Source of the DNA: Candidatus Microgenomates bacterium
Lineage (GTDB): Bacteria; Patescibacteriota; Microgenomatia; JACQLA01
Direction of reading: 5' to 3'
Assembly: GCA_016204255.1 (NCBI GenBank)
Contig: JACQLA010000003.1
Coordinates: 106,255-170,254 of the forward strand
DNA: 64,000 nucleotides
The notes under the pieces are model-generated. The model ran no database searches and was not told the DNA's origin. It was given only the letters and a program-made list of their open reading frames with translations. Shown piece by piece: positions 3,121 through 39,752 of this stretch (position 1 is the stretch's first letter; each line of letters begins with the position of its first letter). The translations under genes were made by a program, and so were the position numbers.

Positions 3121-4308
3121 ATGCCGGATGAAGCTTATCAAAAAGCACCTACACCTTCCGATGAAGCCGAACGCTTAGCCTCCCTTTATGAGCTAAAAAT
3201 TCTCAACACTCCTCCGGAGGAACGCTTTGATCAAATCACTAAAATTGCCACCCATTTGTTTAACGTCCCCATCTCCACATTAACATTGGTTGACTCGGAA
3301 CGGGAATGGTTTAAATCGTGCCAGGGTTTATCAAGTAGCGAAGGCGCACGGGCGATTTCTTTTTGCGGACACACGATTCTTACTGACGAGATATTCATCA
3401 TCCCCGATGCCCTGAAAGACCCGCGATTTGCCGGAAATCCGATGGTTGTGGGCGAACCATATATTAGGTTTTATGCCGGCGCGCCCCTACACGCGGCAGA
3501 CGGTAAAAGAGTCGGAGCATTTTGCATCAAAGATCGTAAACCCCGTAAAATGTCCCCTACTGAAATAGACTTATTAAAATCACTTTCCGCTTGGGCAGAA
3601 CTTGAGTTAAATTCGCAGGAACTCAGCCTAGCCCTGGAATCGCGTAAAAAGGCGGAGACTAAAGTAATTGAACTCAATGCAGCCCTACGTCTTCTTAATA
3701 AGATTTTAAGACATGATGTTTTAAATGACCTAACCGTAGTAAAAGGGTTTATCGAACTCTATGTTGAAGGCAAGGGCGGGATGGAAAAGATACAGGCCGC
3801 AATTAACGCCGTTGAACGGGGCATTAGACTGATTGAGCAAGTTAAAGCCCTTGAAAGTGCGATTTCAACCGGTAAACCCCTACAAGTTTATGAATTAGAT
3901 ACAATTTTAAAACGCATTATCAATCTATTTCCCGCCATTCAATTTCACATCGACGGTAACGGTCAGGTTTTAGCCGATGAAGCATTGGATTCGGTAATTG
4001 AAAACATCGTTTTCAATGCCCAAATACATGGAAAAACAAAAAAAGTTGATTTTATAATCTCGGAAAAAAATAATTTTATAGAGATCAAAATTGCCGACTA
4101 TGGAATTGGAATTCCCTCAGAAGTTAAGGAGAAATTATTTACGGAAGGGTTTAAATATGGCGAAGCCGGACATACTGGCCTAGGTCTTTACATTGTCAAA
4201 AAAACTTTAGAGCGATATGGAGGAGATATTACAATCGAAGACAATAAACCAAGCGGCACAATATTTATTCTCACATTACGAAAATCTCCTTCCAATGCGC
4301 AAAAATAA
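3121..4308 (+). CDS. Cytoplasmic GAF-domain sensor histidine kinase
   Basis: 395-aa ORF. N-terminal GAF-like region, helical linker, H-box-like ILRHDVLNDL, HATPase N/G boxes (ENIVFNAQIHG, DYGIGIP, GHTGLGLYIVK). No TM segment. Confidence 0.8.
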   Translation: MPDEAYQKAPTPSDEAERLASLYELKILNTPPEERFDQITKIATHLFNVPISTLTLVDSEREWFKSCQGLSSSEGARAISFCGHTILTDEIFIIPDALKDPRFAGNPMVVGEPYIRFYAGAPLHAADGKRVGAFCIKDRKPRKMSPTEIDLLKSLSAWAELELNSQELSLALESRKKAETKVIELNAALRLLNKILRHDVLNDLTVVKGFIELYVEGKGGMEKIQAAINAVERGIRLIEQVKALESAISTGKPLQVYELDTILKRIINLFPAIQFHIDGNGQVLADEALDSVIENIVFNAQIHGKTKKVDFIISEKNNFIEIKIADYGIGIPSEVKEKLFTEGFKYGEAGHTGLGLYIVKKTLERYGGDITIEDNKPSGTIFILTLRKSPSNAQK

Positions 4309-5887
4309 ATTTATACTTTTTTCCCCAAAGTTCTTATCATCAAACCTCGACAACCTTTTAAAACCTAAAACCTTCGCTCTTTTTCTTTTTGTTTTAATTT
4401 TTGCTCTTGGCCTTAAACTTACATATCAAAAAACCGTTTCCTTTGGCTGTTTTGACGATTGCGCCAATTACAGTGTCGGTTATTTCATGACTAAGGGCCG
4501 GGCAATCTACACAGAAATCCCGTTTAACCACCAACCTCTCATGCTTTATTTAAGTTATCTAATTCAGACAATTCTCAAGCCCGTAAGTCTTACCCAGTTG
4601 CTTCTTTTTCACCGTTTCTCTCTTTTTATTTTTTCTTTATTAATGGGGCTTTTGATTCTCTGGAGGTTTCGCTTATCGGGATTTGCCTTCATTTTATTTT
4701 ATGAATTGACAAAATATTATCTTTTCGGTGAACGTTTTTTGGCCGAATCATTTATTGTTTATCCGCTGGTTTATCTTTTTGGACTCATGTGGCATCGGCT
4801 TGGCGGTAAAAATATTTTTCCCATCGATTATTTTTTAGCGGGTATTTTTACCTGGTTTGTTATCTTTTCCGCCACCCCCTATATCCCCCTTGCACTTATT
4901 CTTTACATTCTTTTTTTGGGATGGGGTTTATCGAGAATTAAAATTGTCTCCCTACTTCTTTTTTCCTTATTATCCCTAAGCATCCTTTCAACGATTTCTT
5001 TACCCGATTATTTCTTCAACATTTTTACAATCAACTCTCAAACCGTAGGGAAATCAGAAATTAGCAATAATTTGTTACAAGACTTGGGAATAATAAAAAG
5101 CTTTGGATATCCATTTGTTCTTTTCTTTGGTGGAGTATGGAATGAATTTCGAGTTTTCCTCGTTGTGTTAGATTTTATTTTTTTGATTTTATTAGGGCTT
5201 GTGATGGGCTTTGTGAAAAAACGACTGATTATTGGCGGACTTTTTATTTTAGGGTTGGCAAATATTCGCGTCGTTATCCCCGGGACAATTTTTTATGAAG
5301 GCTTTCATATGATTCAATGGTATGGGATTTTTTTGATGATGATTTTTTTAATGGCTGAGACTATTCGGCCCCAGAAATACCGGAGGTTAGTTATGATCTC
5401 CCTGGTATTTACTCTGGCTTTGCTGATGCTTCCGCCAGGATCATATCTTCGGAAAGGAGTGGATCGACATCAGGAATTTATGGCTGGGTATGGAGGTTAT
5501 TTGGCAACAGGAGAAATTATTAAAATTCTGGCTGAATCACAAGATACATTATTTTTAGATAATAATCGCCACGATATCGTTTATTGGTTGACCAACCTAA
5601 ATTCTCCCTATAAATATTCATGGTATACATGGATGATGCCTGATTTTAAACTTTATAGCGAAGCAAGAAGTGAGATGTTTAAAACCGACCCTCCTGATTT
5701 TTATTATGGTTTTTGCATGCCCGGCCAGAATCCGGCGAAAAATCTGCCAGTCGACTATGCTGAGCTCTATTTTGCCGGCCGCCCAACTTGCTTATATATC
5801 AGGGCGGAAAAAATTCAAAAGATTGCGAAGGAAAAGTGGGAAAAGGCAAGGGGACTGCAGTATAGTATTGATCTTCCAAAACCCTAG
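4295..5887 (+). CDS. Polytopic membrane protein, GT-C (ArnT/PMT-like) glycosyltransferase-like
   Basis: Track frame 4217-5887. I prefer ATG 4295 (MRKNKF...), overlapping the kinase stop by 14 nt. About 12 hydrophobic helices plus a ~130-aa soluble C-terminal tail. Family assignment by overall shape only. Confidence 0.5.
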   Translation: MRKNKFILFSPKFLSSNLDNLLKPKTFALFLFVLIFALGLKLTYQKTVSFGCFDDCANYSVGYFMTKGRAIYTEIPFNHQPLMLYLSYLIQTILKPVSLTQLLLFHRFSLFIFSLLMGLLILWRFRLSGFAFILFYELTKYYLFGERFLAESFIVYPLVYLFGLMWHRLGGKNIFPIDYFLAGIFTWFVIFSATPYIPLALILYILFLGWGLSRIKIVSLLLFSLLSLSILSTISLPDYFFNIFTINSQTVGKSEISNNLLQDLGIIKSFGYPFVLFFGGVWNEFRVFLVVLDFIFLILLGLVMGFVKKRLIIGGLFILGLANIRVVIPGTIFYEGFHMIQWYGIFLMMIFLMAETIRPQKYRRLVMISLVFTLALLMLPPGSYLRKGVDRHQEFMAGYGGYLATGEIIKILAESQDTLFLDNNRHDIVYWLTNLNSPYKYSWYTWMMPDFKLYSEARSEMFKTDPPDFYYGFCMPGQNPAKNLPVDYAELYFAGRPTCLYIRAEKIQKIAKEKWEKARGLQYSIDLPKP

Positions 5888-6015
5888 TGAGTGGGTGCAT
5901 AAATACCGCACCGCAGTCAAACCACCGAGTTTAATTATATTATTCCAAACAACCAACCATAGGCAACGCATGACGAAATTAATAATTAAGAACTCCTACG
6001 AGTCTCCGTAAAAAG

Positions 6016-7923
6016 TCAGTGGTTGCCCACCTCATCGTTCCCTTGTTTTTCTTTCCATTGTTTGAATCTTTCTTGCACATCCTTTTCAGTATCGGGATCA
6101 ACATATTTTGGATTTAACAAAACTCGTACGCCATACGGCATTACCCCTTGATTTATAATTTGTTTCAATTCAGCTGGATTTAACCGTTTTCCTTGAAAGC
6201 CGGTTTCAAGAATTTTGACAACGACATCCATCATCGCTGCACAGTGTTTATAGCGATTAGCGATTGAGGGTGTTAACCCATGAGCTGGCATGAATTCTCC
6301 TTCTTCAAACTTTGCTTTTAAATTTTCAGCATCATTAAAATAATCTAAGAAAGTTCTCATGATGGGATCTTTTAAGTATTCTTGTTGAACTCCAAATCTT
6401 ACACCAGTTTCATCAATTTTTCTCCTACGATCTCTGTCATTTCTATTCGGAGTTCCGGCGGAATAACGCTCATAGTTTTCCCGACCATAAGCATAATAAT
6501 ATTTATGGAACACACCATCAATACCATTTTTTTTCGGATGTGGATTCTGCCACATTCCTTCCACTCTTTTTTCATTTTGAGTAGGAGGTTTCCCTGAGAC
6601 TGATTTCACATCAAGGCCATATGCTCCTAAACCGGCTCCAATTTTTTCTGCTAAATAGCTGGGGTGAGTTTCTGCACCTTGAAATCCATTTTCAATTATT
6701 TCACAGATGCCCCTCATCATCAATTCAGCTGAATAACATCTCTGGGATAAGGAAAGATCAGGAAAAGCATCAAGAATCATTTCATAATTTCCTGTTTGAA
6801 GAGTTTGTAAAACTGTAGAGCTTTGATTACTTAGAACCGATAAATTTCTTTGAAGCTCCCTTGAGTCAATAACAGTTCCGAGAAAGTGCCTAACCATTGG
6901 ATGCTCCCAATTTTTTTCCGGTATCCCAAAAGCTACCGCCTTTAAATCAAGCTGAAAATCTCTTCCAACTTGCTCCCAATGGCATTCTTCCTCTTCATCC
7001 ACTTTAACTTCTGCATTTCTATCAGCTGTTGGCCTTTCAAGGATGGGTGGAACATACGGCTTAACATCAACATGTAGATTATATTTATCAAGCACGTAAT
7101 TTAATCCATAGATTATTTTATCAAGAGAAAAATATCCTCCTACGTGCTCGCAAAGCATTTCATTAGCTGCGCCAAGAATTTCTCTAATATATTCTGACTG
7201 AAAACCGTCTTCCGTCTGACAATATCCCTCTTGTAAGGGCGTATGCAACCCAACTTGATAGGCTCTCCGCATTAAATCGGGCATATTGTTTAAAATGTTT
7301 GCGAAATCTCTCATATATGGCAGATGAGCATAATAAGAGGCTGGTTGAACTCCTTGCCCTTTGGATTTTTTATAGAACATGACATATGATTTTCTATATT
7401 CTTCTTCGGCTTCTTTTGTCCGTTCTTTATAGTCCAACTGATATTGATTAAGCCTCTCGTGGTATTTGGAACTAGGATCATAGTAAGAAGCGTATGGATT
7501 TCTGTCATAATCCGAAGGTAAATCCGCCGTATATAAACCGTATGCCTCAAAAGCCATATCAAGGTTTTCTTTCATAAAATCAGGGTTAATTTCCCTTACG
7601 CCCAATCCTTCTTCTGTCATCGCCATAGCGATCGTAATTAAATGCGCAGCGCGCGCGTATCTATCAGTTAAAGATGGTTTTATCGAAGGTTCTAATTTAT
7701 CTTTAGTTCTCTGTTCAGGCTTAAGACTCTCAGCGAAACCAGCATTTACGCTCGCGTTTCTTAAAACCCCCAGAAAATCATCTAGGGCTACATGAAGACG
7801 TAGATAAGCAACTGTGGTTGGAACTTCTTTAAGCACGGAGGGTATGCCTAAACGTTGGGCTACAGCACTAACTCTTTCAGCTTCACCGGGGAAAAATGGT
7901 ATACTCCCTTGCTCTTTTGCCAT
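6016..7923 (-). CDS. Orphan 635-aa soluble protein with three to four copies of a 46-aa repeat
   Basis: Long ORF with no TM or signal peptide. Gapless repeats at aa 86-131, 393-438 and 554-599 share invariant R3, E19, G21, P29, Y43, G44 (e.g. ...ENGFQGAETHPSYLAEKIGAGLGAYGL / ...ETGFQGKRLNPAELKQIINQGVMPYGV). A degenerate copy lies near aa 243-288. No family recognised. Confidence 0.7.
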   Translation of the reverse strand: MAKEQGSIPFFPGEAERVSAVAQRLGIPSVLKEVPTTVAYLRLHVALDDFLGVLRNASVNAGFAESLKPEQRTKDKLEPSIKPSLTDRYARAAHLITIAMAMTEEGLGVREINPDFMKENLDMAFEAYGLYTADLPSDYDRNPYASYYDPSSKYHERLNQYQLDYKERTKEAEEEYRKSYVMFYKKSKGQGVQPASYYAHLPYMRDFANILNNMPDLMRRAYQVGLHTPLQEGYCQTEDGFQSEYIREILGAANEMLCEHVGGYFSLDKIIYGLNYVLDKYNLHVDVKPYVPPILERPTADRNAEVKVDEEEECHWEQVGRDFQLDLKAVAFGIPEKNWEHPMVRHFLGTVIDSRELQRNLSVLSNQSSTVLQTLQTGNYEMILDAFPDLSLSQRCYSAELMMRGICEIIENGFQGAETHPSYLAEKIGAGLGAYGLDVKSVSGKPPTQNEKRVEGMWQNPHPKKNGIDGVFHKYYYAYGRENYERYSAGTPNRNDRDRRRKIDETGVRFGVQQEYLKDPIMRTFLDYFNDAENLKAKFEEGEFMPAHGLTPSIANRYKHCAAMMDVVVKILETGFQGKRLNPAELKQIINQGVMPYGVRVLLNPKYVDPDTEKDVQERFKQWKEKQGNDEVGNH

Positions 7924-7973: not shown

Positions 7974-8048
7974 GGTGATGTACCGGATTCGAACCGGCAA
8001 CCTTCAGATTCACAGTCTGATGCTCTAACCAGTTGAGCTAACATCACC
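7974..8048 (-). tRNA. tRNA-His (GTG) with encoded G-1
   Basis: Hand-folded cloverleaf: G-1 opposite C73, acceptor GUGAUGU/ACAUCAC, D stem GCUC/GAGC, anticodon arm UCAGA-CUGUGAA-UCUGA, T arm GCCGG-UUCGAAU-CCGGU. Confidence 0.9.
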
Positions 8049-8492
8049 ATATAATTTCAAAACTTTCTTAGCCCATTGTACGATATCTTCAACCCGTGCG
8101 CCAGTAGGTTGCAATTTTGTCCAAAGTTCTAAGTTTTCGATTCTGTTATCATTTCGCGCCCCGTTTTTATGATGAACACTTTCAAAAGGTAGCAAATATC
8201 TACCTAACTTTTGTTCAAGTATAAGGCGGTGCTCAAATACTCTCCCGCTCTTATCAGCAAATGGGTGAGCCCTGTAATAAACATACAAATATCCTCTTTT
8301 ATCTACATGCCTCCTATTAGAGTAGGGATATTGCTTGCTTTGATAATAACATAGTTTACAAACTCTTGATTTCCTCTGTTTTAATCGTCCACACGCGCAA
8401 GGTCGTTTTCCCAATTGCCCCCTGCATTTGGGACATAATCGATGCCGGCTGGATGCTACATATCTCCTTTTACATTTATTGCACTCTTTCAT
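8025..8492 (-). CDS. HNH endonuclease with N-terminal Cys-rich zinc ribbon
   Basis: Track ORF 8025-8564. Likely start is M25 (ATG 8492, MKECNKCKRRY...). Several CxxC pairs, then an HNH_3-type motif SVHHKNGARNDNRIENLELW. The last 8 codons and the TAG stop lie inside the tRNA-His gene. Confidence 0.8.
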   Translation of the reverse strand: MKECNKCKRRYVASSRHRLCPKCRGQLGKRPCACGRLKQRKSRVCKLCYYQSKQYPYSNRRHVDKRGYLYVYYRAHPFADKSGRVFEHRLILEQKLGRYLLPFESVHHKNGARNDNRIENLELWTKLQPTGARVEDIVQWAKKVLKLYGDVSSTG

Positions 8493-8671
8493 AAAAACTA
8501 TGATAACAATTTGTGGAGTTGTTGTCAATTTATTTTTTAAAATAACTATGATATATATCTCCACAAGATATGAATTCCAAAATTCTCTTTCTCAATTCTT
8601 ACAACGCGCTTATGTAAATTTTAATTTCATAAACTATTCTTTTAAAAAGAAAGGAGGATAATATAGGCATT

Positions 8672-9657: not shown

Positions 9658-10128
9658 ATGGAAAAACTTAGAACTTACACACCAGAAATTATAAGCCCTG
9701 CAGTAGTGGAAGAGTTTAAAGATTTTATCAATATTCTTTATCGCGCAACCTCTCATCCTGATAATCCGCGAGTTAAGGGGTTTAAAGACGGCTCCAACTG
9801 CCAACGTTTTGCAGTTGACGTTTTACGGGGTTGCGGTTTTACGATTCCTCATTTACGCTCTTTAGAACTCTGGCAAGATAATCCATATACATATTTGGCG
9901 GATCAGCCGGAAAAATATGATTTGGTTTTCTTCACGCCAGACTGGGAAACCGATATGCGATTTGCCCATGTTGGTGTGATAGCCGAAGTAAATAACGAAG
10001 GTAACTTTTGGGTAATTCATAATTCAAAAGAGGTGGGACGATCAAAAATCTGGTCCCTTAATCGTTTTGCGCAAACCGACCGCTATCGGGTTTTAAGAGG
10101 AATAAAGCGACCAGCTAGACTCGGTTAA
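9658..10128 (+). CDS. NlpC/P60-family (papain-like) hydrolase, cytoplasmic
   Basis: 156 aa. Order Cys (GSNCQRFA), then YDLVFF...FAHVGVIAEV, then WVIHNS, matching the C...H...H pattern and GDLVFF/HVGIY/IHA context of NlpC/P60. Confidence 0.65.
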   Translation: MEKLRTYTPEIISPAVVEEFKDFINILYRATSHPDNPRVKGFKDGSNCQRFAVDVLRGCGFTIPHLRSLELWQDNPYTYLADQPEKYDLVFFTPDWETDMRFAHVGVIAEVNNEGNFWVIHNSKEVGRSKIWSLNRFAQTDRYRVLRGIKRPARLG

Positions 10129-10340: not shown

Positions 10341-11783
10341 CTAGAGCGCGTCTCTGATAACTTCAGTCGAAGTGGGCATCGGGGTTTGCCGCGCCTGGTC
10401 TTTGAGTTTCTTATACTCTTCCTCGCTGATGGCGTGTCCGTTTGGCGGTGAAGTCTTATAAGAATTTAATGTTTGAGAATTAACACAAGTTCGTCCTTTT
10501 GTTTCAAAATTTATACAAAGTTGATAATCTTTCCCATCCGGCTGAAGAATATATTGATAAGGAAATTTTGTTTTGGGATCGGTTGGTACAGTTTTTAAAT
10601 ATTGAGGCGCTAGTTGACTAAGGCTGGGAGGATAGTAACCGGTTGCCAAAAAATACTGATTAAGTGCCTGTTGAATCTGTATCTGGTTTACTATTCGTAC
10701 CGGATCATTTTGGGTTTTATTAATTTGTTTTGCGGGATTAAGAGCGACAGAGATTATAGCAGCAACGATACTTAAAGGAATAATTAAAAATCCGAAAATT
10801 CCGGCCAGGATTAGAATTAACTTTGTCTTTCCCGCAATAACAGCCATTTCGCCTTTAATTGATTTCGTATGCTTATAGAGAAGGAGCAAATAAACAGAGG
10901 TTAACGGCCCAATAAAGAGATTTGTAAACAAATTTAGAAAAGGGAATATAATCGCCGCAATTATGTAAAACAGACCATTAAATAGTCCAAGAACAAAAAG
11001 CCTCCAGAGAACCGGCCACCATTTCCCCCGGACATATTCACGGCTTTTTAAAAGGGCACCCAAACCACCAGTGTTTTCCAAAACCAGTAAATATCGGGAA
11101 AAAGTAAACCAGACGGAAAAAATTATTCCGGGAATAATAAAAAATATAAATCCTCCCATGACAATCAACCCGGATAAAAGGGACAATAAAAATAGCGGAA
11201 TTATTTTGGATCGACCCTTTTGATAAGAATCTTTTACGCCAATTTTTTCCCCGGCGCCATTGATGGCAAAAATCAGAGCCGCCTCACTCCAAAACTGAAC
11301 AGCTATTGTCGCGATAATTATTATTACTGTTAGAGGAATCAGAAAGAAGAGTAATCCGGGGGAAAGAAAATTGGGTAATACGTTTACGGCAGCATTTGGT
11401 AAATTTGATTCCAATGAAGTCTTTTGAAAGAAAACGCCAGAACTAATTCCCAGGCCGGCTATCAAACCCCAAATTAAAAGTTGAGCTAGTGTTGGAATTA
11501 AAACAATAACCAAAAACGTGCGCCAACTTTTTTTATAAATTTCCCATGCTTCTTTCAAAAGAGCAATTGGGCCGGGAAGCTTACCATCGACAGTTGATGA
11601 AACAGTATTTGATGGCGGTGGAGAAGGAGGTGGTTGATCCGATGACGAAATTTTCTCTTTAAAGGCCTCCTCAATATCCTGCTCCTTCCAGCCGGCAGCA
11701 ACGAGGTTATTTTTTATCTCCTCGTCGGTTTTTCCTTTTTGCAGCTGATCTTTAATGTAATTTGTTAACTGCCGATCTGGCAT
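10341..11783 (-). CDS. Polytopic membrane protein with C-terminal pilin-like (GspG/PilE-like) domain
   Basis: 480 aa. Soluble N-terminal helix, Pro-rich linker, about 8 TM helices. The C-terminal 100 aa (IQQALNQYFLATGYYPPSLSQLAPQYLKTVPTDPKT...YQL) follows the pattern of type IV pilin / T2SS pseudopilin globular domains. Confidence 0.6.
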   Translation of the reverse strand: MPDRQLTNYIKDQLQKGKTDEEIKNNLVAAGWKEQDIEEAFKEKISSSDQPPPSPPPSNTVSSTVDGKLPGPIALLKEAWEIYKKSWRTFLVIVLIPTLAQLLIWGLIAGLGISSGVFFQKTSLESNLPNAAVNVLPNFLSPGLLFFLIPLTVIIIIATIAVQFWSEAALIFAINGAGEKIGVKDSYQKGRSKIIPLFLLSLLSGLIVMGGFIFFIIPGIIFSVWFTFSRYLLVLENTGGLGALLKSREYVRGKWWPVLWRLFVLGLFNGLFYIIAAIIFPFLNLFTNLFIGPLTSVYLLLLYKHTKSIKGEMAVIAGKTKLILILAGIFGFLIIPLSIVAAIISVALNPAKQINKTQNDPVRIVNQIQIQQALNQYFLATGYYPPSLSQLAPQYLKTVPTDPKTKFPYQYILQPDGKDYQLCINFETKGRTCVNSQTLNSYKTSPPNGHAISEEEYKKLKDQARQTPMPTSTEVIRDAL

Positions 11784-35473: not shown

Positions 35474-35554
35474 CTATATTCAAATGCGGACAATCCTTTC
35501 ATAATCTGATTATATCAAAGAGGGTGCCGTGATATCCAACGCTATAGGAAAAAG

Positions 35555-35625
35555 CTGCGAGGGATGGATTCGAACCATCATAACCACCTCCAAAGGGTGA
35601 TGTCCTACCATTAGACGACCTCGCA
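35555..35625 (-). tRNA. tRNA-Gln (TTG)
   Basis: U1-A72 acceptor UGCGAGG/CCUCGCA, G73, anticodon arm UCACC-CUUUGGA-GGUGG, T arm GAUGG-UUCGAAU-CCAUC. Confidence 0.9.
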
Positions 35626-35676
35626 TTAACTTGGATAGTGCTAAAAGGGGAGCAGACTGCCCTTAAAACGAATTTG

Positions 35677-35747
35677 AGCGGGTAACGGGAGTCGAACCCG
35701 TGCCTCGTCCTTGGCAAGGACGCATAATACCGCTATACTATACCCGC
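35677..35747 (-). tRNA. tRNA-Gly (GCC)
   Basis: Acceptor GCGGGUA/UACCCGC, anticodon arm CGUCC-UUGCCAA-GGACG, T arm ACGGG-UUCGACU-CCCGU. Confidence 0.9.
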
Positions 35748-36431
35748 ACGCTCCAATGCTTGGTTATATAAATTTATCCATTCAATAATTTTTTCTTTTA
35801 ATTCACGGCTATAAACTTGTATCGAACAAACTCCATGATCTACTTTTCTTTTTTTCTCTCTACCAAGAATATACTGAGATTTAACAAATTGTTCTTGCGA
35901 AACTCCAAGTATTTTACTCCAATATTCTTTACATATTTTTTCATTAAGGTCAGGGTAAAGAAGTAACCACAATCTAATTTTTCCTAATTGAATCTGGCAA
36001 CAAACTCTTAAAAAGGCGATAAAAATTTTTAGTAATCGATAATCAATATTAGAAATGCGCACTATTCCATTCTTTAGTCTTTTATCACCTTCTCCCCAAT
36101 AAATCATTAAACCAGGTCCAAAAAGCGGCATTGAGAACAACTTAGGGAATTCTTGGGTCGCTTGATTCCTATAGTTTAAATGAATTCTCCGCCACTTTTC
36201 CTTATTGGCTTGAGCCATTAATTTCAATTTCTCAATCGCTTTTTCCTGAGCCCGCTTTATTAAAACCTTCTTGACTCGAGATGAATAAACATCTGCCTTA
36301 AACCAGTTGGAAAGAGTGCTTTTAGGGATACCCAACTCTCGACTTATTGTGTTATAGCTTCTCTGTTTTTTTCGTAATGTAAAAGCCTTTTTTTTGAGTT
36401 TATTTTTATTTATTGAACTAACGTATGCCAT
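35733..36431 (-). CDS. HTH + LAGLIDADG-like putative homing endonuclease inside a tRNA array
   Basis: 232 aa. N-terminal HTH (RSYNTISRELGIPKSTLSNWF). GPGLMIYWGEGDK resembles a LAGLIDADG motif. The last 5 codons and the TAG stop lie inside tRNA-Gly(GCC). Family call is tentative. Confidence 0.5.
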   Translation of the reverse strand: MAYVSSINKNKLKKKAFTLRKKQRSYNTISRELGIPKSTLSNWFKADVYSSRVKKVLIKRAQEKAIEKLKLMAQANKEKWRRIHLNYRNQATQEFPKLFSMPLFGPGLMIYWGEGDKRLKNGIVRISNIDYRLLKIFIAFLRVCCQIQLGKIRLWLLLYPDLNEKICKEYWSKILGVSQEQFVKSQYILGREKKRKVDHGVCSIQVYSRELKEKIIEWINLYNQALERAGIV

Positions 36432-36482
36432 TATATTTAATGATATAACGTCAGTTTTTATTTTTCAAAGAGCAAAATTTAG

Positions 36483-36555
36483 TGCCGAGGCTCAGAGTTG
36501 CACTGAGATCTCATGTTTTTCAGACACGCGCCGTGACTACCTTGGCTACCTCGGC
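36483..36555 (-). tRNA. tRNA-Phe (GAA) with atypical T loop
   Basis: Acceptor GCCGAGG/CCUCGGC, A73, anticodon arm CGUGU-CUGAAAA-ACAUG, T arm CUCAG-UGCAACU-CUGAG (G at position 55). Confidence 0.75.
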
Positions 36556-36606
36556 ATACCGGAGTATTTTATCCGACTTTGGCTTTCACTTCAAGCCTGT
36601 TATTTG

Positions 36607-36680
36607 TGGGCTTGCCAGGATTCGAACCTGGGACCTTCTCGATGTAAACGAGACGCTCTAACCAACTGAGCCACAAGCCC
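36607..36680 (-). tRNA. tRNA-Val (TAC)
   Basis: GGGCUUG-UG-GCUC-AGUUGGUUA-GAGC-G-UCUCG-UUUACAU-CGAGA-AGGUC-CCAGG-UUCGAAU-CCUGG-CAAGCCC-A. Confidence 0.9.
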
Positions 36681-36685
36681 TTACT

Positions 36686-36772
36686 TGGTGCGGACGAGAG
36701 GACTTGAACCTCCACGACCTTGCGGTCACAGGCTCCTCAAGCCTGCCTGTCTACCGATTCCAGCACGTCCGC
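36686..36772 (-). tRNA. tRNA-Leu (GAG), class II, CCA encoded
   Basis: Acceptor GCGGACG/CGUCCGC, anticodon arm CAGGC-UUGAGGA-GCCUG, long variable arm, T arm GGAGG-UUCAAGU-CCUCU, ACCA. Confidence 0.9.
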
Positions 36773-39398: not shown

Positions 39399-39483
39399 TG
39401 GTGCCGAAGGTGGGACTTGAACCCACACCCCTTGCGGGACACGGCCCTGAACCGTGCGCGTCTGCCAATTCCGCCACTTCGGC
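39399..39483 (-). tRNA. tRNA-Leu (CAG), class II, CCA encoded
   Basis: GCCGAAG-UG-GCG-GAAUUGGCAGA-CGC-G-CACGG-UUCAGGG-CCGUG, variable arm, GUGGG-UUCAAGU-CCCAC-CUUCGGC-ACCA. Confidence 0.9.
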
Positions 39484-39497
39484 CTGATAACTTAGTT

Positions 39498-39752
39498 TTA
39501 TTTTAAAACGTGCGTAAACAAATTTTTCTTCATCCAACGACGCCCTACAGCTGATTTAAAATATTTTTCTCTTTTGATTACTTCTTCTAAGGTAGCAAAA
39601 AAATCCGAATAAATAATTTCCCATGGTCTATATCGTTTACTGAAGATACTGTTGCCATTATTGTGTTGAATAAGTCTTCGTTCCAGGTTGTCTGTGTGAC
39701 CAACGTATGTTTTTTCAGCTACTCGACTTTTAAGAATATACACGACGTACAT
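39498..39752 (-). CDS. GIY-YIG nuclease-domain protein (UPF0213-like)
   Basis: 84 aa. VVYILKSRVAEKTYVGHTDNLERRLIQHN ... KREKYFK matches the GIY-(x10)-YVG, R and E/N positions of GIY-YIG. Confidence 0.85.
   Translation of the reverse strand: MYVVYILKSRVAEKTYVGHTDNLERRLIQHNNGNSIFSKRYRPWEIIYSDFFATLEEVIKREKYFKSAVGRRWMKKNLFTHVLK

Follow-up and report, generated by a model that had tools for sequence, protein, structure and literature searches.

An HNH nuclease gene that ends inside tRNA-His in Microgenomates bacteria, a probable homing-type cassette

Why does the gene of an HNH endonuclease end inside a tRNA gene? The question is raised by a 64,000-nucleotide stretch of contig JACQLA010000003.1 (the window), in which an open reading frame (ORF) encoding such an enzyme lies immediately upstream of the co-oriented tRNA-His(GTG) gene, runs into it and takes its stop codon from it. 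The host was judged, from the names on identical and related proteins and contigs, to be a Microgenomates bacterium of the candidate phyla radiation (CPR). In the reading that we prefer, and to which we give a probability of roughly 0.6, the ORF belongs to a compact, site-specific cassette of homing-endonuclease type that has invaded tRNA-His in some of the Microgenomates and is co-transcribed with the tRNA. In what follows, L numbers denote comparison loci and P numbers protein clusters, and the features of the window are collected in Table 1.

Read from the ATG at 8492, the ORF ends ...AAA TTA TAT GGT GAT GTT AGC TCA ACT GGT TAG, and this TAG (8027..8025) falls within the D-loop sequence GGTTAGAGC of tRNA-His. 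The 24-nt overlap described in the original prediction (8048..8025) is borne out, as is the lack of an earlier exit: scanning the ORF for an in-frame stop before the tRNA, we found none. The last eight codons (YGDVSSTG) had been assigned to the tRNA; the tRNA does encode the stop, but the Tyr codon (8051..8049) lies outside it and the count is seven (GDVSSTG), off by one. The mechanical ORF list starts the gene at GTG 8564, while all homologues begin at the position of ATG 8492 with M-x-x-C. Annotation pipelines truncate or mis-start such genes: the NCBI record (protein P0067, window 8025-8285) comprises only the C-terminal 87 amino acids from an internal TTG start, and the zinc-ribbon half of the gene is absent from public annotation.

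Next, we asked how widely this junction recurs. Among the 120 best 90%-identity clusters matched by the HNH protein, 84 end in the tRNA-encoded tail, either as ...LYG[DG]VSS[TIVA]G or as a longer read-on of the same tRNA. Read-on variants reach deeper into the tRNA (GLEH, GLER, VEH), and the ORF of P0059 reads through the whole tRNA-His, GTG anticodon included. A tail of this origin is present in every match that has a complete C-terminus and an identity of about 60% or higher. A genome scan, with one genome per GTDB species and matches of at least 60% identity counted, yielded 16 loci, each with a tRNA-His that begins about 20 nt before the ORF end. In these and in one metagenome contig (L160), 17 loci in all, the junction is identical, ...TATATG directly followed by GTGRYGTTAGCTCA, and the Tyr codon preceding G-1 is TAT in every one, which places a U directly 5' of the RNase P site. 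Carriers among the 16 species are labelled Daviesbacteria, Gottesmanbacteria, Levybacteria and others, the names of several candidate phyla. As a baseline, 298 tRNAs across all compared loci were inspected for co-oriented ORFs ending inside them; other long ORFs of this kind on high-GC contigs are compositionally spurious, and the low-GC equivalents are further nuclease-type genes or relatives of a 232-residue ORF considered below. The overlap between the HNH gene and tRNA-His is real and not due to chance.

The neighbourhood, compared by clustering genes between loci, consists of ordinary genes that differ among loci, and nothing phage-like is prominent in it. In the window, a 635-residue ORF lies directly downstream of tRNA-His (6016-7923, minus strand); it has no Pfam match and no counterpart beside the cassette in the 16 other loci. 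In a separate HNH relative, P0117 (15 contigs), the C-terminus ...EGIEPSF resembles an antisense translation of a tRNA T arm, which suggests another relative abutting a convergent tRNA.

The assignment of the gene to the HNH nucleases, proposed earlier from the letters of the DNA, agrees with profile searches. Residues 88-128 of the 155-residue protein match Pfam HNH_3 (PF13392; 39.7 bits against a cut-off of 24.8, E = 3.7e-10), the protein matches the PHROG HNH endonuclease phrog_20891 (5.9e-30), and two CxxC...CxxC zinc ribbons precede the HNH_3 core. H107, H108, N110, D115, N116, N120 and eight cysteines are invariant in 26 homologues of 60-80% identity; L014 has HN in place of HH in its HNH motif. 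An HNH_3 nuclease of phage or homing type is supported by these matches. In the AlphaFold2 (AF2) model (predicted local distance difference test score, pLDDT, 79) the last helix, 134-148, ends at the tRNA boundary, and residues 152-155 of the tRNA-encoded tail are predicted to be disordered (pLDDT < 50). The best structural match of the model in the PDB is I-HmuI (1u3e), with E = 0.19 and a template-modelling (TM) score of 0.3; a sequence-level PDB search with the protein gave no match.

How is such a gene expressed? The best promoter-like site of the region has its -10 element ending 7 nt before the ATG, and a promoter stands at the equivalent place in 14 of the 17 loci, its -10 ending 6-11 nt before the start codon. 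The HNH ATG is not preceded by a Shine-Dalgarno sequence. Since the promoter ends just before the ATG, the nuclease mRNA is probably leaderless or nearly so. The ORF itself lacks a conserved promoter; in the window no internal site reaches the scan threshold, and the other loci show only sporadic 9/12 matches. Because the ORF abuts the tRNA, no room is left for a promoter and leader of tRNA-His itself, and this arrangement, together with the lack of a conserved internal promoter and the conserved promoter just upstream of the ATG, strongly implies that the HNH gene and tRNA-His are co-transcribed.

The clearest trace of an insertion came from the sequence upstream of the ORF. When the 260 nt upstream of each ORF were aligned with the tRNA-His of the same locus, a partial second copy of this tRNA appeared about 60 nt upstream of the start codon. 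It begins with G-1 and breaks off at about position 41-45, or perhaps only near position 53 in L001, L002 and L005. This relic matches at 45/47 positions in L014 and is well preserved in L008, L004, L007 and L012; it is also seen in L002 and is decayed elsewhere, and the window retains only TTGTGGAG. No relic of the 3' part was found downstream of the functional tRNA. A search for direct repeats within the window alone gave only short two-copy families, which we could not interpret, and the relic emerged from cross-locus comparison only. Between relic and tRNA there are a spacer, the promoter and one ORF only, making a cassette of about 551 nt (~0.55 kb) with the same content in 17 loci. Upstream of the relic, -10 boxes of a native promoter are kept in L004, L007, L008 and L014.

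Empty-site alleles of tRNA-His, named earlier as a check on an insertion, do exist. Looking up tRNA-His by way of the neighbouring DUF1905/OmdA gene, we found a locus without the nuclease in three lookups of three (L201, L203, L204). Synteny of L203 with the occupied L014 extends for more than 5 kb on the upstream side and includes the DUF1905 gene downstream; L203 lacks an HNH gene, and has a tRNA-His 96.6% identical to the functional copy of L014. Its promoter/leader, TTGGTATACTTAGTGCTGTATTTG followed by GTGG, is homologous to the sequence before the L014 relic, TTGATATACTTATACCTGTATTTG followed by GTGG. This comparison indicates that the relic marks the original position of the gene and that the cassette of about 551 nt is an insertion relative to the empty-site allele.

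Attachment to one RNA gene is not confined to this lineage. A sister HNH subfamily (~50% identity) lies 37-44 nt 3' of, and co-oriented with, the gene for transfer-messenger RNA (tmRNA) in 7/7 CPR loci (L016-L022; for example L018, 9548-10462), and more distant relatives, in Actinomycetota and some viral contigs, stand against the tmRNA 3' end or beside tRNAs. A fixed RNA-gene site is a trait of the family, as the tRNA-His and tmRNA lineages show. Both CPR lineages also have the heptamer CTCCACA between their promoter hexamers (window 8518..8511, within CTCCACAA). A second instance borders the cassette on its left in each lineage: the tmRNA gene has CTCCACA as its 3' end, and the relic of the tRNA-His lineage has the reverse complement, TGTGGAG, as part of its anticodon loop. 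The motifs of relic and spacer occur together in 14 loci and the window, and L013 and L024 lack both. We regard TGTGGAG/CTCCACA as a candidate for the recognition motif or the operator of the nuclease. Considered as an RNA hairpin, the inverted repeat TTGTGGAG/CTCCACAA shows no informative covariation, and its second arm, lying between -35 and -10, would be transcribed only from the upstream native promoter.

From this anatomy the following course of events may be proposed. The nuclease would recognise the DNA of the tRNA-His gene, with TGTGGAG/CTCCACA as a candidate motif, and the cassette would spread, in the past or still, by break-induced copying, restoring a complete tRNA as it does so. 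Transcripts of tRNA-His would begin at the cassette promoter and possibly also at the native promoter where its -10 is kept. RNase P would release tRNA-His by cutting after the U that precedes G-1, so that the insertion would be harmless to the host, a role that may be likened to that of self-splicing for endonuclease genes borne by introns. The processed nuclease mRNA would end ...UUA UAU without a stop, and later ribosomes would need rescue by tmRNA, the genes of which are present in these lineages. Nuclease output would be limited to translation that precedes RNase P processing, and a ribosome on the first 24 nt of tRNA-His would delay folding of the tRNA. As the single tRNA-His would depend on the transcription unit of the cassette, imprecise deletion of the cassette would be selected against.

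In the original prediction, tRNA maturation and nuclease translation were held to be mutually exclusive. The co-transcription on which this depends is strongly implied by the anatomy, but strict exclusion goes too far, as a transcript may be translated first and processed afterwards. RNase P processing and nuclease translation would rather be in kinetic competition.

It might be asked, taking the original prediction in its strong form, whether the overlap is itself an evolved regulatory device, the stop inside the tRNA setting translation against maturation and keeping a toxic nuclease at a very low level. We regard this as a tentative idea, on balance doubtful. Overlap and frame are conserved in 17 loci and 84 clusters, yet a stop inside the tRNA is frozen by selection on the tRNA, and its conservation is therefore no proof of adaptation. 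There is no alternative stop codon, and the TAT before G-1 in all 17 loci provides the U at the RNase P site; against this stand the read-on variants (GLEH, VEH) and the read-through of P0059, which keep the ORF, and a tail which, being disordered in the model, looks dispensable. Other ORFs end inside tRNAs too (L002, L190, L201), but the family of the 232-residue ORF varies between a 15-nt overlap and a 40-nt gap, and the ORFs of GIY-YIG type described below stop 8-14 nt before their tRNAs. Since the seven-residue tail is predicted to be disordered and follows the last helix, the overlap may be a mere by-product of insertion flush with the tRNA.

Several observations weigh against a homing-type cassette as we have drawn it. 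Weak promoter-like matches lie about 64 nt before the tRNA in L003 and L006, and the structural likeness of the modelled nuclease to I-HmuI is weak. Another is the make-up of the relic. At least two tRNA-His types occur in Microgenomates (L203 7904-7978, L204 4485-4557, L201 7881-7956), differing in the D loop (long or short), acceptor positions 6-7 (GT or TG) and the T arm (GCCGG or GCGGG). The first 26 nt of preserved relics (GGTGGNTGTAGCTCAGTGGTAGAGC) are of the type of the empty-site L204; the adjacent functional copy (GGTGRYGTTAGCTCARYTGGTTAGAGC) is of the type of the empty-site L203; and the anticodon arm of the relic is closer to the functional tRNA of its own locus than to those of other loci (0/20,000 permutations reach the observed sum). 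The relic is a mosaic that no simple one-step insertion predicts. Moreover, synonymous sites are saturated between loci, so that no locus should still show an unselected relic of one ancient event. The pattern might be due to local conversion between the repeats, perhaps stimulated by the nuclease, to repeated re-insertion, or to selection on the relic as homology arm or operator. Nor is it explained how the occupied allele escapes cleavage, its functional tRNA being nearly identical to the empty-site tRNA of L203, with only the upstream context and the relic different. Immunity through an altered functional copy was considered and rejected, the tRNA of L203 being virtually the same.

The evolutionary behaviour of the gene points both ways. 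The ratio of nonsynonymous to synonymous substitution rates (dN/dS) in the HNH ORF is 0.08-0.2, with synonymous differences near saturation (median proportion, pS, 0.73), and the ORF is under strong purifying selection, which, with the invariant zinc ligands and HNH residues, speaks for a functional protein. On the other side, its divergence tracks that of the neighbouring DUF1905 gene in 21 pairs (pairwise identities, a small sample). Near-identical strains, found by way of a neighbouring 80-residue gene, were occupied in both contexts, with no recent polymorphism seen. Congruent divergence and occupation of all near-identical strains mean that there is no sign of recent horizontal spread, and long vertical inheritance with occasional loss fits equally well as active homing.

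These facts lend themselves to another history: a single insertion in the ancestor of a Microgenomates subclade, after which the gene was kept for some host function, such as DNA repair, defence or something tied to the expression of tRNA-His, and ceased to home. We consider this unlikely, although by no means far-fetched. Congruence with the DUF1905 gene, strong purifying selection over a synonymous divergence (dS) above 1, conservation of junction and promoter, and the presence of the cassette in all near-identical strains found are what one would expect of it. The cassette is absent, however, from the syntenic L203 and from all three relatives sampled via the neighbouring gene, and only 16 GTDB species genomes are occupied, yet these are labelled as several candidate phyla. 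The state of the relics varies from nearly intact to almost erased, in keeping with events that differ in age or with conversion still under way. The copy in L015 has a frameshift near codon 13 (about 10001-10060) relative to the near-identical L010 and is either decaying or an assembly error. Finally, the sister lineage keeps to another RNA gene, a pattern typical of a selfish site-specific element. In metagenomes, a scan with a tRNA-His core pattern found 1/121 genes with the same core sequence occupied, so that occupancy is rare; the hits are mostly from unrelated phyla and yielded no close empty sites.

That a prophage or integrase-type island once integrated at tRNA-His and left the HNH gene behind as a passenger appears very improbable. 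Genes for tRNA and tmRNA are classic integration sites, and the wider HNH family is abundant in viral contigs and PHROGs (at least 476 relatives in viral contigs, the best of 46% identity, the closest adjoining tRNA or tmRNA genes); the tRNA-His-linked subfamily was not found among the viral contigs searched. The unit, however, is no longer than about 0.55 kb and does not vary in content across 17 loci, its flanking genes are ordinary and differ among loci, and the repeat is the 5' part of the tRNA, placed upstream, the mirror image of an integrase attachment (att) site, with no 3' repeat downstream. An integrase-type island proper was rejected on the same pattern of repeats and because the unit contains no integrase. 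An intron- or intein-borne endonuclease was rejected too, the functional tRNA-His being continuous; across the window, no group I or group II intron scores as high as the Rfam gathering cut-off. That the ORF is a mere chance frame or annotation artefact running into the tRNA, as spurious long ORFs do in high-GC loci, is refuted by conservation: clear Pfam and PHROG matches, conserved catalytic and zinc-binding residues, a dN/dS far below 1 and the same layout in 17 loci.

Table 1. Features of the window discussed in the text (positions in the window; all on the minus strand)
Feature	Position	Strand	Basis or remark
HNH endonuclease ORF, 155 aa, N-terminal Cys4-type zinc ribbons and HNH_3 core	8025..8492	minus	stop TAG 8027..8025
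tRNA-His(GTG), functional copy	7973 (or 7974)..8047, 8048 including encoded G-1	minus	ARAGORN; Rfam tRNA 72.4 bits; G-1 read from sequence
Overlap of ORF and tRNA-His, 24 nt: codons GDVSSTG and TAG, tRNA positions -1 to D loop	8025..8048	minus	sequence
sigma70-type promoter, TTGACA (8528..8523)-17 nt-TG-TATCAT (8505..8500)	8500..8528	minus	promoter scan, 11/12 matches
CTCCACAA, motif in promoter spacer, reverse complement of relic anticodon-loop motif	8511..8518	minus	candidate operator/recognition motif
TTGTGGAG, last recognisable relic remnant (anticodon loop)	8559..8566	minus	alignment with relics of L014, L008, L004, L007, L012, L002
HTH-containing ORF, 232 aa, ends 15 nt inside tRNA-Gly(GCC)	35733..36431	minus	conserved CPR gene
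tRNA-Gly(GCC)	35676..35747	minus	ARAGORN, Rfam
Promoter-like TTGAAA-17-TATCAT, ends 8 nt before ATG of 232-aa ORF, directly after tRNA-Phe	36440..36468	minus	read by eye
GIY-YIG ORF, 84 aa, ends 14 nt before tRNA-Leu(CAG)	39498..39752	minus	Pfam
tRNA-Leu(CAG)	39399..39483	minus	ARAGORN, Rfam

Two further ORFs of the window stand 5' of tRNA genes, and the original prediction saw in the three cases three unrelated homing-type nuclease folds. This is not supported. Beside tRNA-Gly(GCC), where the same layout as at tRNA-His had been claimed, the overlap of 15 nt is there, but the ORF is not demonstrably a nuclease, only a helix-turn-helix (HTH) domain being recognised in it, and it is kept in a tRNA operon across CPR classes. 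Its family is widespread over these classes (577 matches). The operon order tRNA-Leu(GAG)-Val(TAC)-Phe(GAA)-ORF-tRNA-Gly(GCC) is found in the window (35554-36772) and in four loci, L206-L209, picked through homologues of 45-62% identity from different CPR groups, with an ORF of about 225 residues; as exceptions, the Val gene of L207 has the anticodon GAC and tRNA-Leu was not detected in L209. The C-terminus reads AG[IM]V in close homologues and R[VADE] in many distant ones. The latter ending is compatible with termination at T8-A9-G10 of the tRNA in a different reading frame, as checked in L206 (10-nt overlap), and the family as a whole ranges from a 15-nt overlap to a 40-nt gap with the tRNA. 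L201 carries a 227-residue paralogue (3733-4473, minus strand; 28% identity, hhalign probability 99.5%) that ends 15 nt inside tRNA-Gln(TTG).

The AF2 model of the 232-residue protein (pLDDT 93) consists of the HTH, a 50-residue helix and an alpha/beta domain. Pfam and PDB profile searches returned the HTH only (weakly in Pfam), and Foldseek against PDB and BFVD gave no match at E <= 0.001, with no LAGLIDADG protein among the PDB matches. The BFVD matches are weak throughout (E > 0.1), to RNA polymerases of giant viruses and to proteins annotated as homing endonuclease or LAGLIDADG. An assignment to LAGLIDADG is unsupported, and the motif GLMIYWGEGDK is a resemblance only. Judged from its distribution, the ORF looks like an old, vertically inherited CPR gene in a tRNA operon and not like a sporadic mobile element.

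The GIY-YIG ORF beside tRNA-Leu(CAG), in contrast, is a clear member of its family: it matches PF01541 with 64.5 bits against a cut-off of 22.6, over 77/78 profile positions, and ends 14 nt before the tRNA. Homologues end 10 nt before tRNA-Arg(TCT) in L123 (7957-8327) and 8 nt before tRNA-Ser(GGA) in L019 (16048-16372), and another lies between tRNA-Val and tRNA-Phe in L209 (1990-2244). Other nuclease genes were met in similar places. In L002, a Gottesmanbacteria contig which also bears the cassette, a second, unrelated HNH ORF (phrog_2255, 1e-30) ends 10 nt inside tRNA-Arg(TCG) (about 10800-11340). The metagenome contig L190 has two different nuclease ORFs that end inside co-oriented tRNAs (714-1290 and 5918-6483), an endonuclease-VII-like one 24 nt into tRNA-His and an HNH one 11 nt into tRNA-Gln(TTG). 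Nuclease genes 5' of co-oriented tRNAs recur beyond the window (L002, L190, L123, L019), and the earlier view, that in these genomes small nuclease genes tend to lie on the 5' side of tRNAs, is correct and reaches further than one window.

A wider interpretation, speculative and in our opinion improbable as a whole, is that CPR genomes harbour a guild of unrelated small nuclease genes (HNH/His-Me lineages, GIY-YIG, the HTH family) in the 5' leaders of tRNAs, with RNase P replacing self-splicing. The HNH gene at tRNA-His would be its extreme form: an invaded tRNA gene with a replacement copy, a relic half and motif serving as homology arm or operator, and output throttled by stop loss that leads to tmRNA.

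If the cassette is what we propose, it represents a third way, beside introns and inteins, for a selfish nuclease gene to live within an essential locus without harm. The gene would hide in the part of the tRNA precursor that RNase P discards and would bring a replacement tRNA if one is needed. It would also provide a natural, conserved bacterial case of one transcript that is both mRNA and tRNA precursor and loses its stop by processing, in which the interplay of translation, RNase P and trans-translation is directly testable. Nucleases specific for sites in tRNA or tmRNA genes may be useful reagents.

Among open-access papers and preprints we found no description of a bacterial chromosomal HNH family tied one-to-one to tRNA-His, nor of a D loop that contains the stop codon, the relic of a 5' half, a promoter module without leader or a sister lineage linked to tmRNA. 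Separate elements of the arrangement are familiar. The rRNA genes of CPR bacteria are known to carry endonuclease-bearing introns and spacer insertions (PMC8172020; PMC10714607, citing Tsurumaki 2022). Phage T4 SegB, a free-standing GIY-YIG homing endonuclease in the tRNA gene cluster of T4, has a 27-bp site that includes the T-psi-C motif (PMC2330249). Like the HNH cassette, it is a free-standing nuclease gene among tRNA genes; its target includes tRNA-coding DNA and its gene is inherited with the adjacent tRNA genes (PMC2330249). It differs in belonging to another nuclease family, in being phage-borne and in having demonstrated activity, where that of the HNH protein is predicted, and neither an overlap of ORF and tRNA, nor a relic tRNA half, nor a dedicated single tRNA partner is reported for it.

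With I-HmuI and related endonucleases of phage introns (PDB 1u3e) the HNH protein has the HNH_3 catalytic core in common; its N-terminal zinc-ribbon region has no alignable counterpart in I-HmuI. I-HmuI is encoded in an intron, the self-splicing of which makes it neutral to the host, whereas the cassette has no intron and RNase P would take that role. HNH genes are also interspersed in the tRNA arrays of mycobacteria and their phages, where they are taken as a sign of horizontal transfer (PMC6582537, PMC5966550). These arrays are large and contain many tRNAs, and their descriptions mention no fixed pairing of one gene with one tRNA, no overlap and no relic.

Integrase islands at tRNA and tmRNA genes resemble the cassette in their choice of a conserved RNA gene as target, in restoring the complete gene and in leaving a partial direct repeat. 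The cassette differs from them in repeating the 5' part of the tRNA, on the upstream side of the restored gene, in having no integrase and in being one gene long. A parallel to its proposed RNA processing is tRNA punctuation in mitochondria, where excision of tRNAs defines the ends of mRNAs and incomplete stop codons are completed by polyadenylation. In mitochondria the end of the mRNA is set, and in the cassette it would be set, by excision of an adjacent tRNA, and in both the reading frame has no autonomous stop; in the cassette, unlike in mitochondria, the tRNA contains a complete stop codon, which processing would remove.

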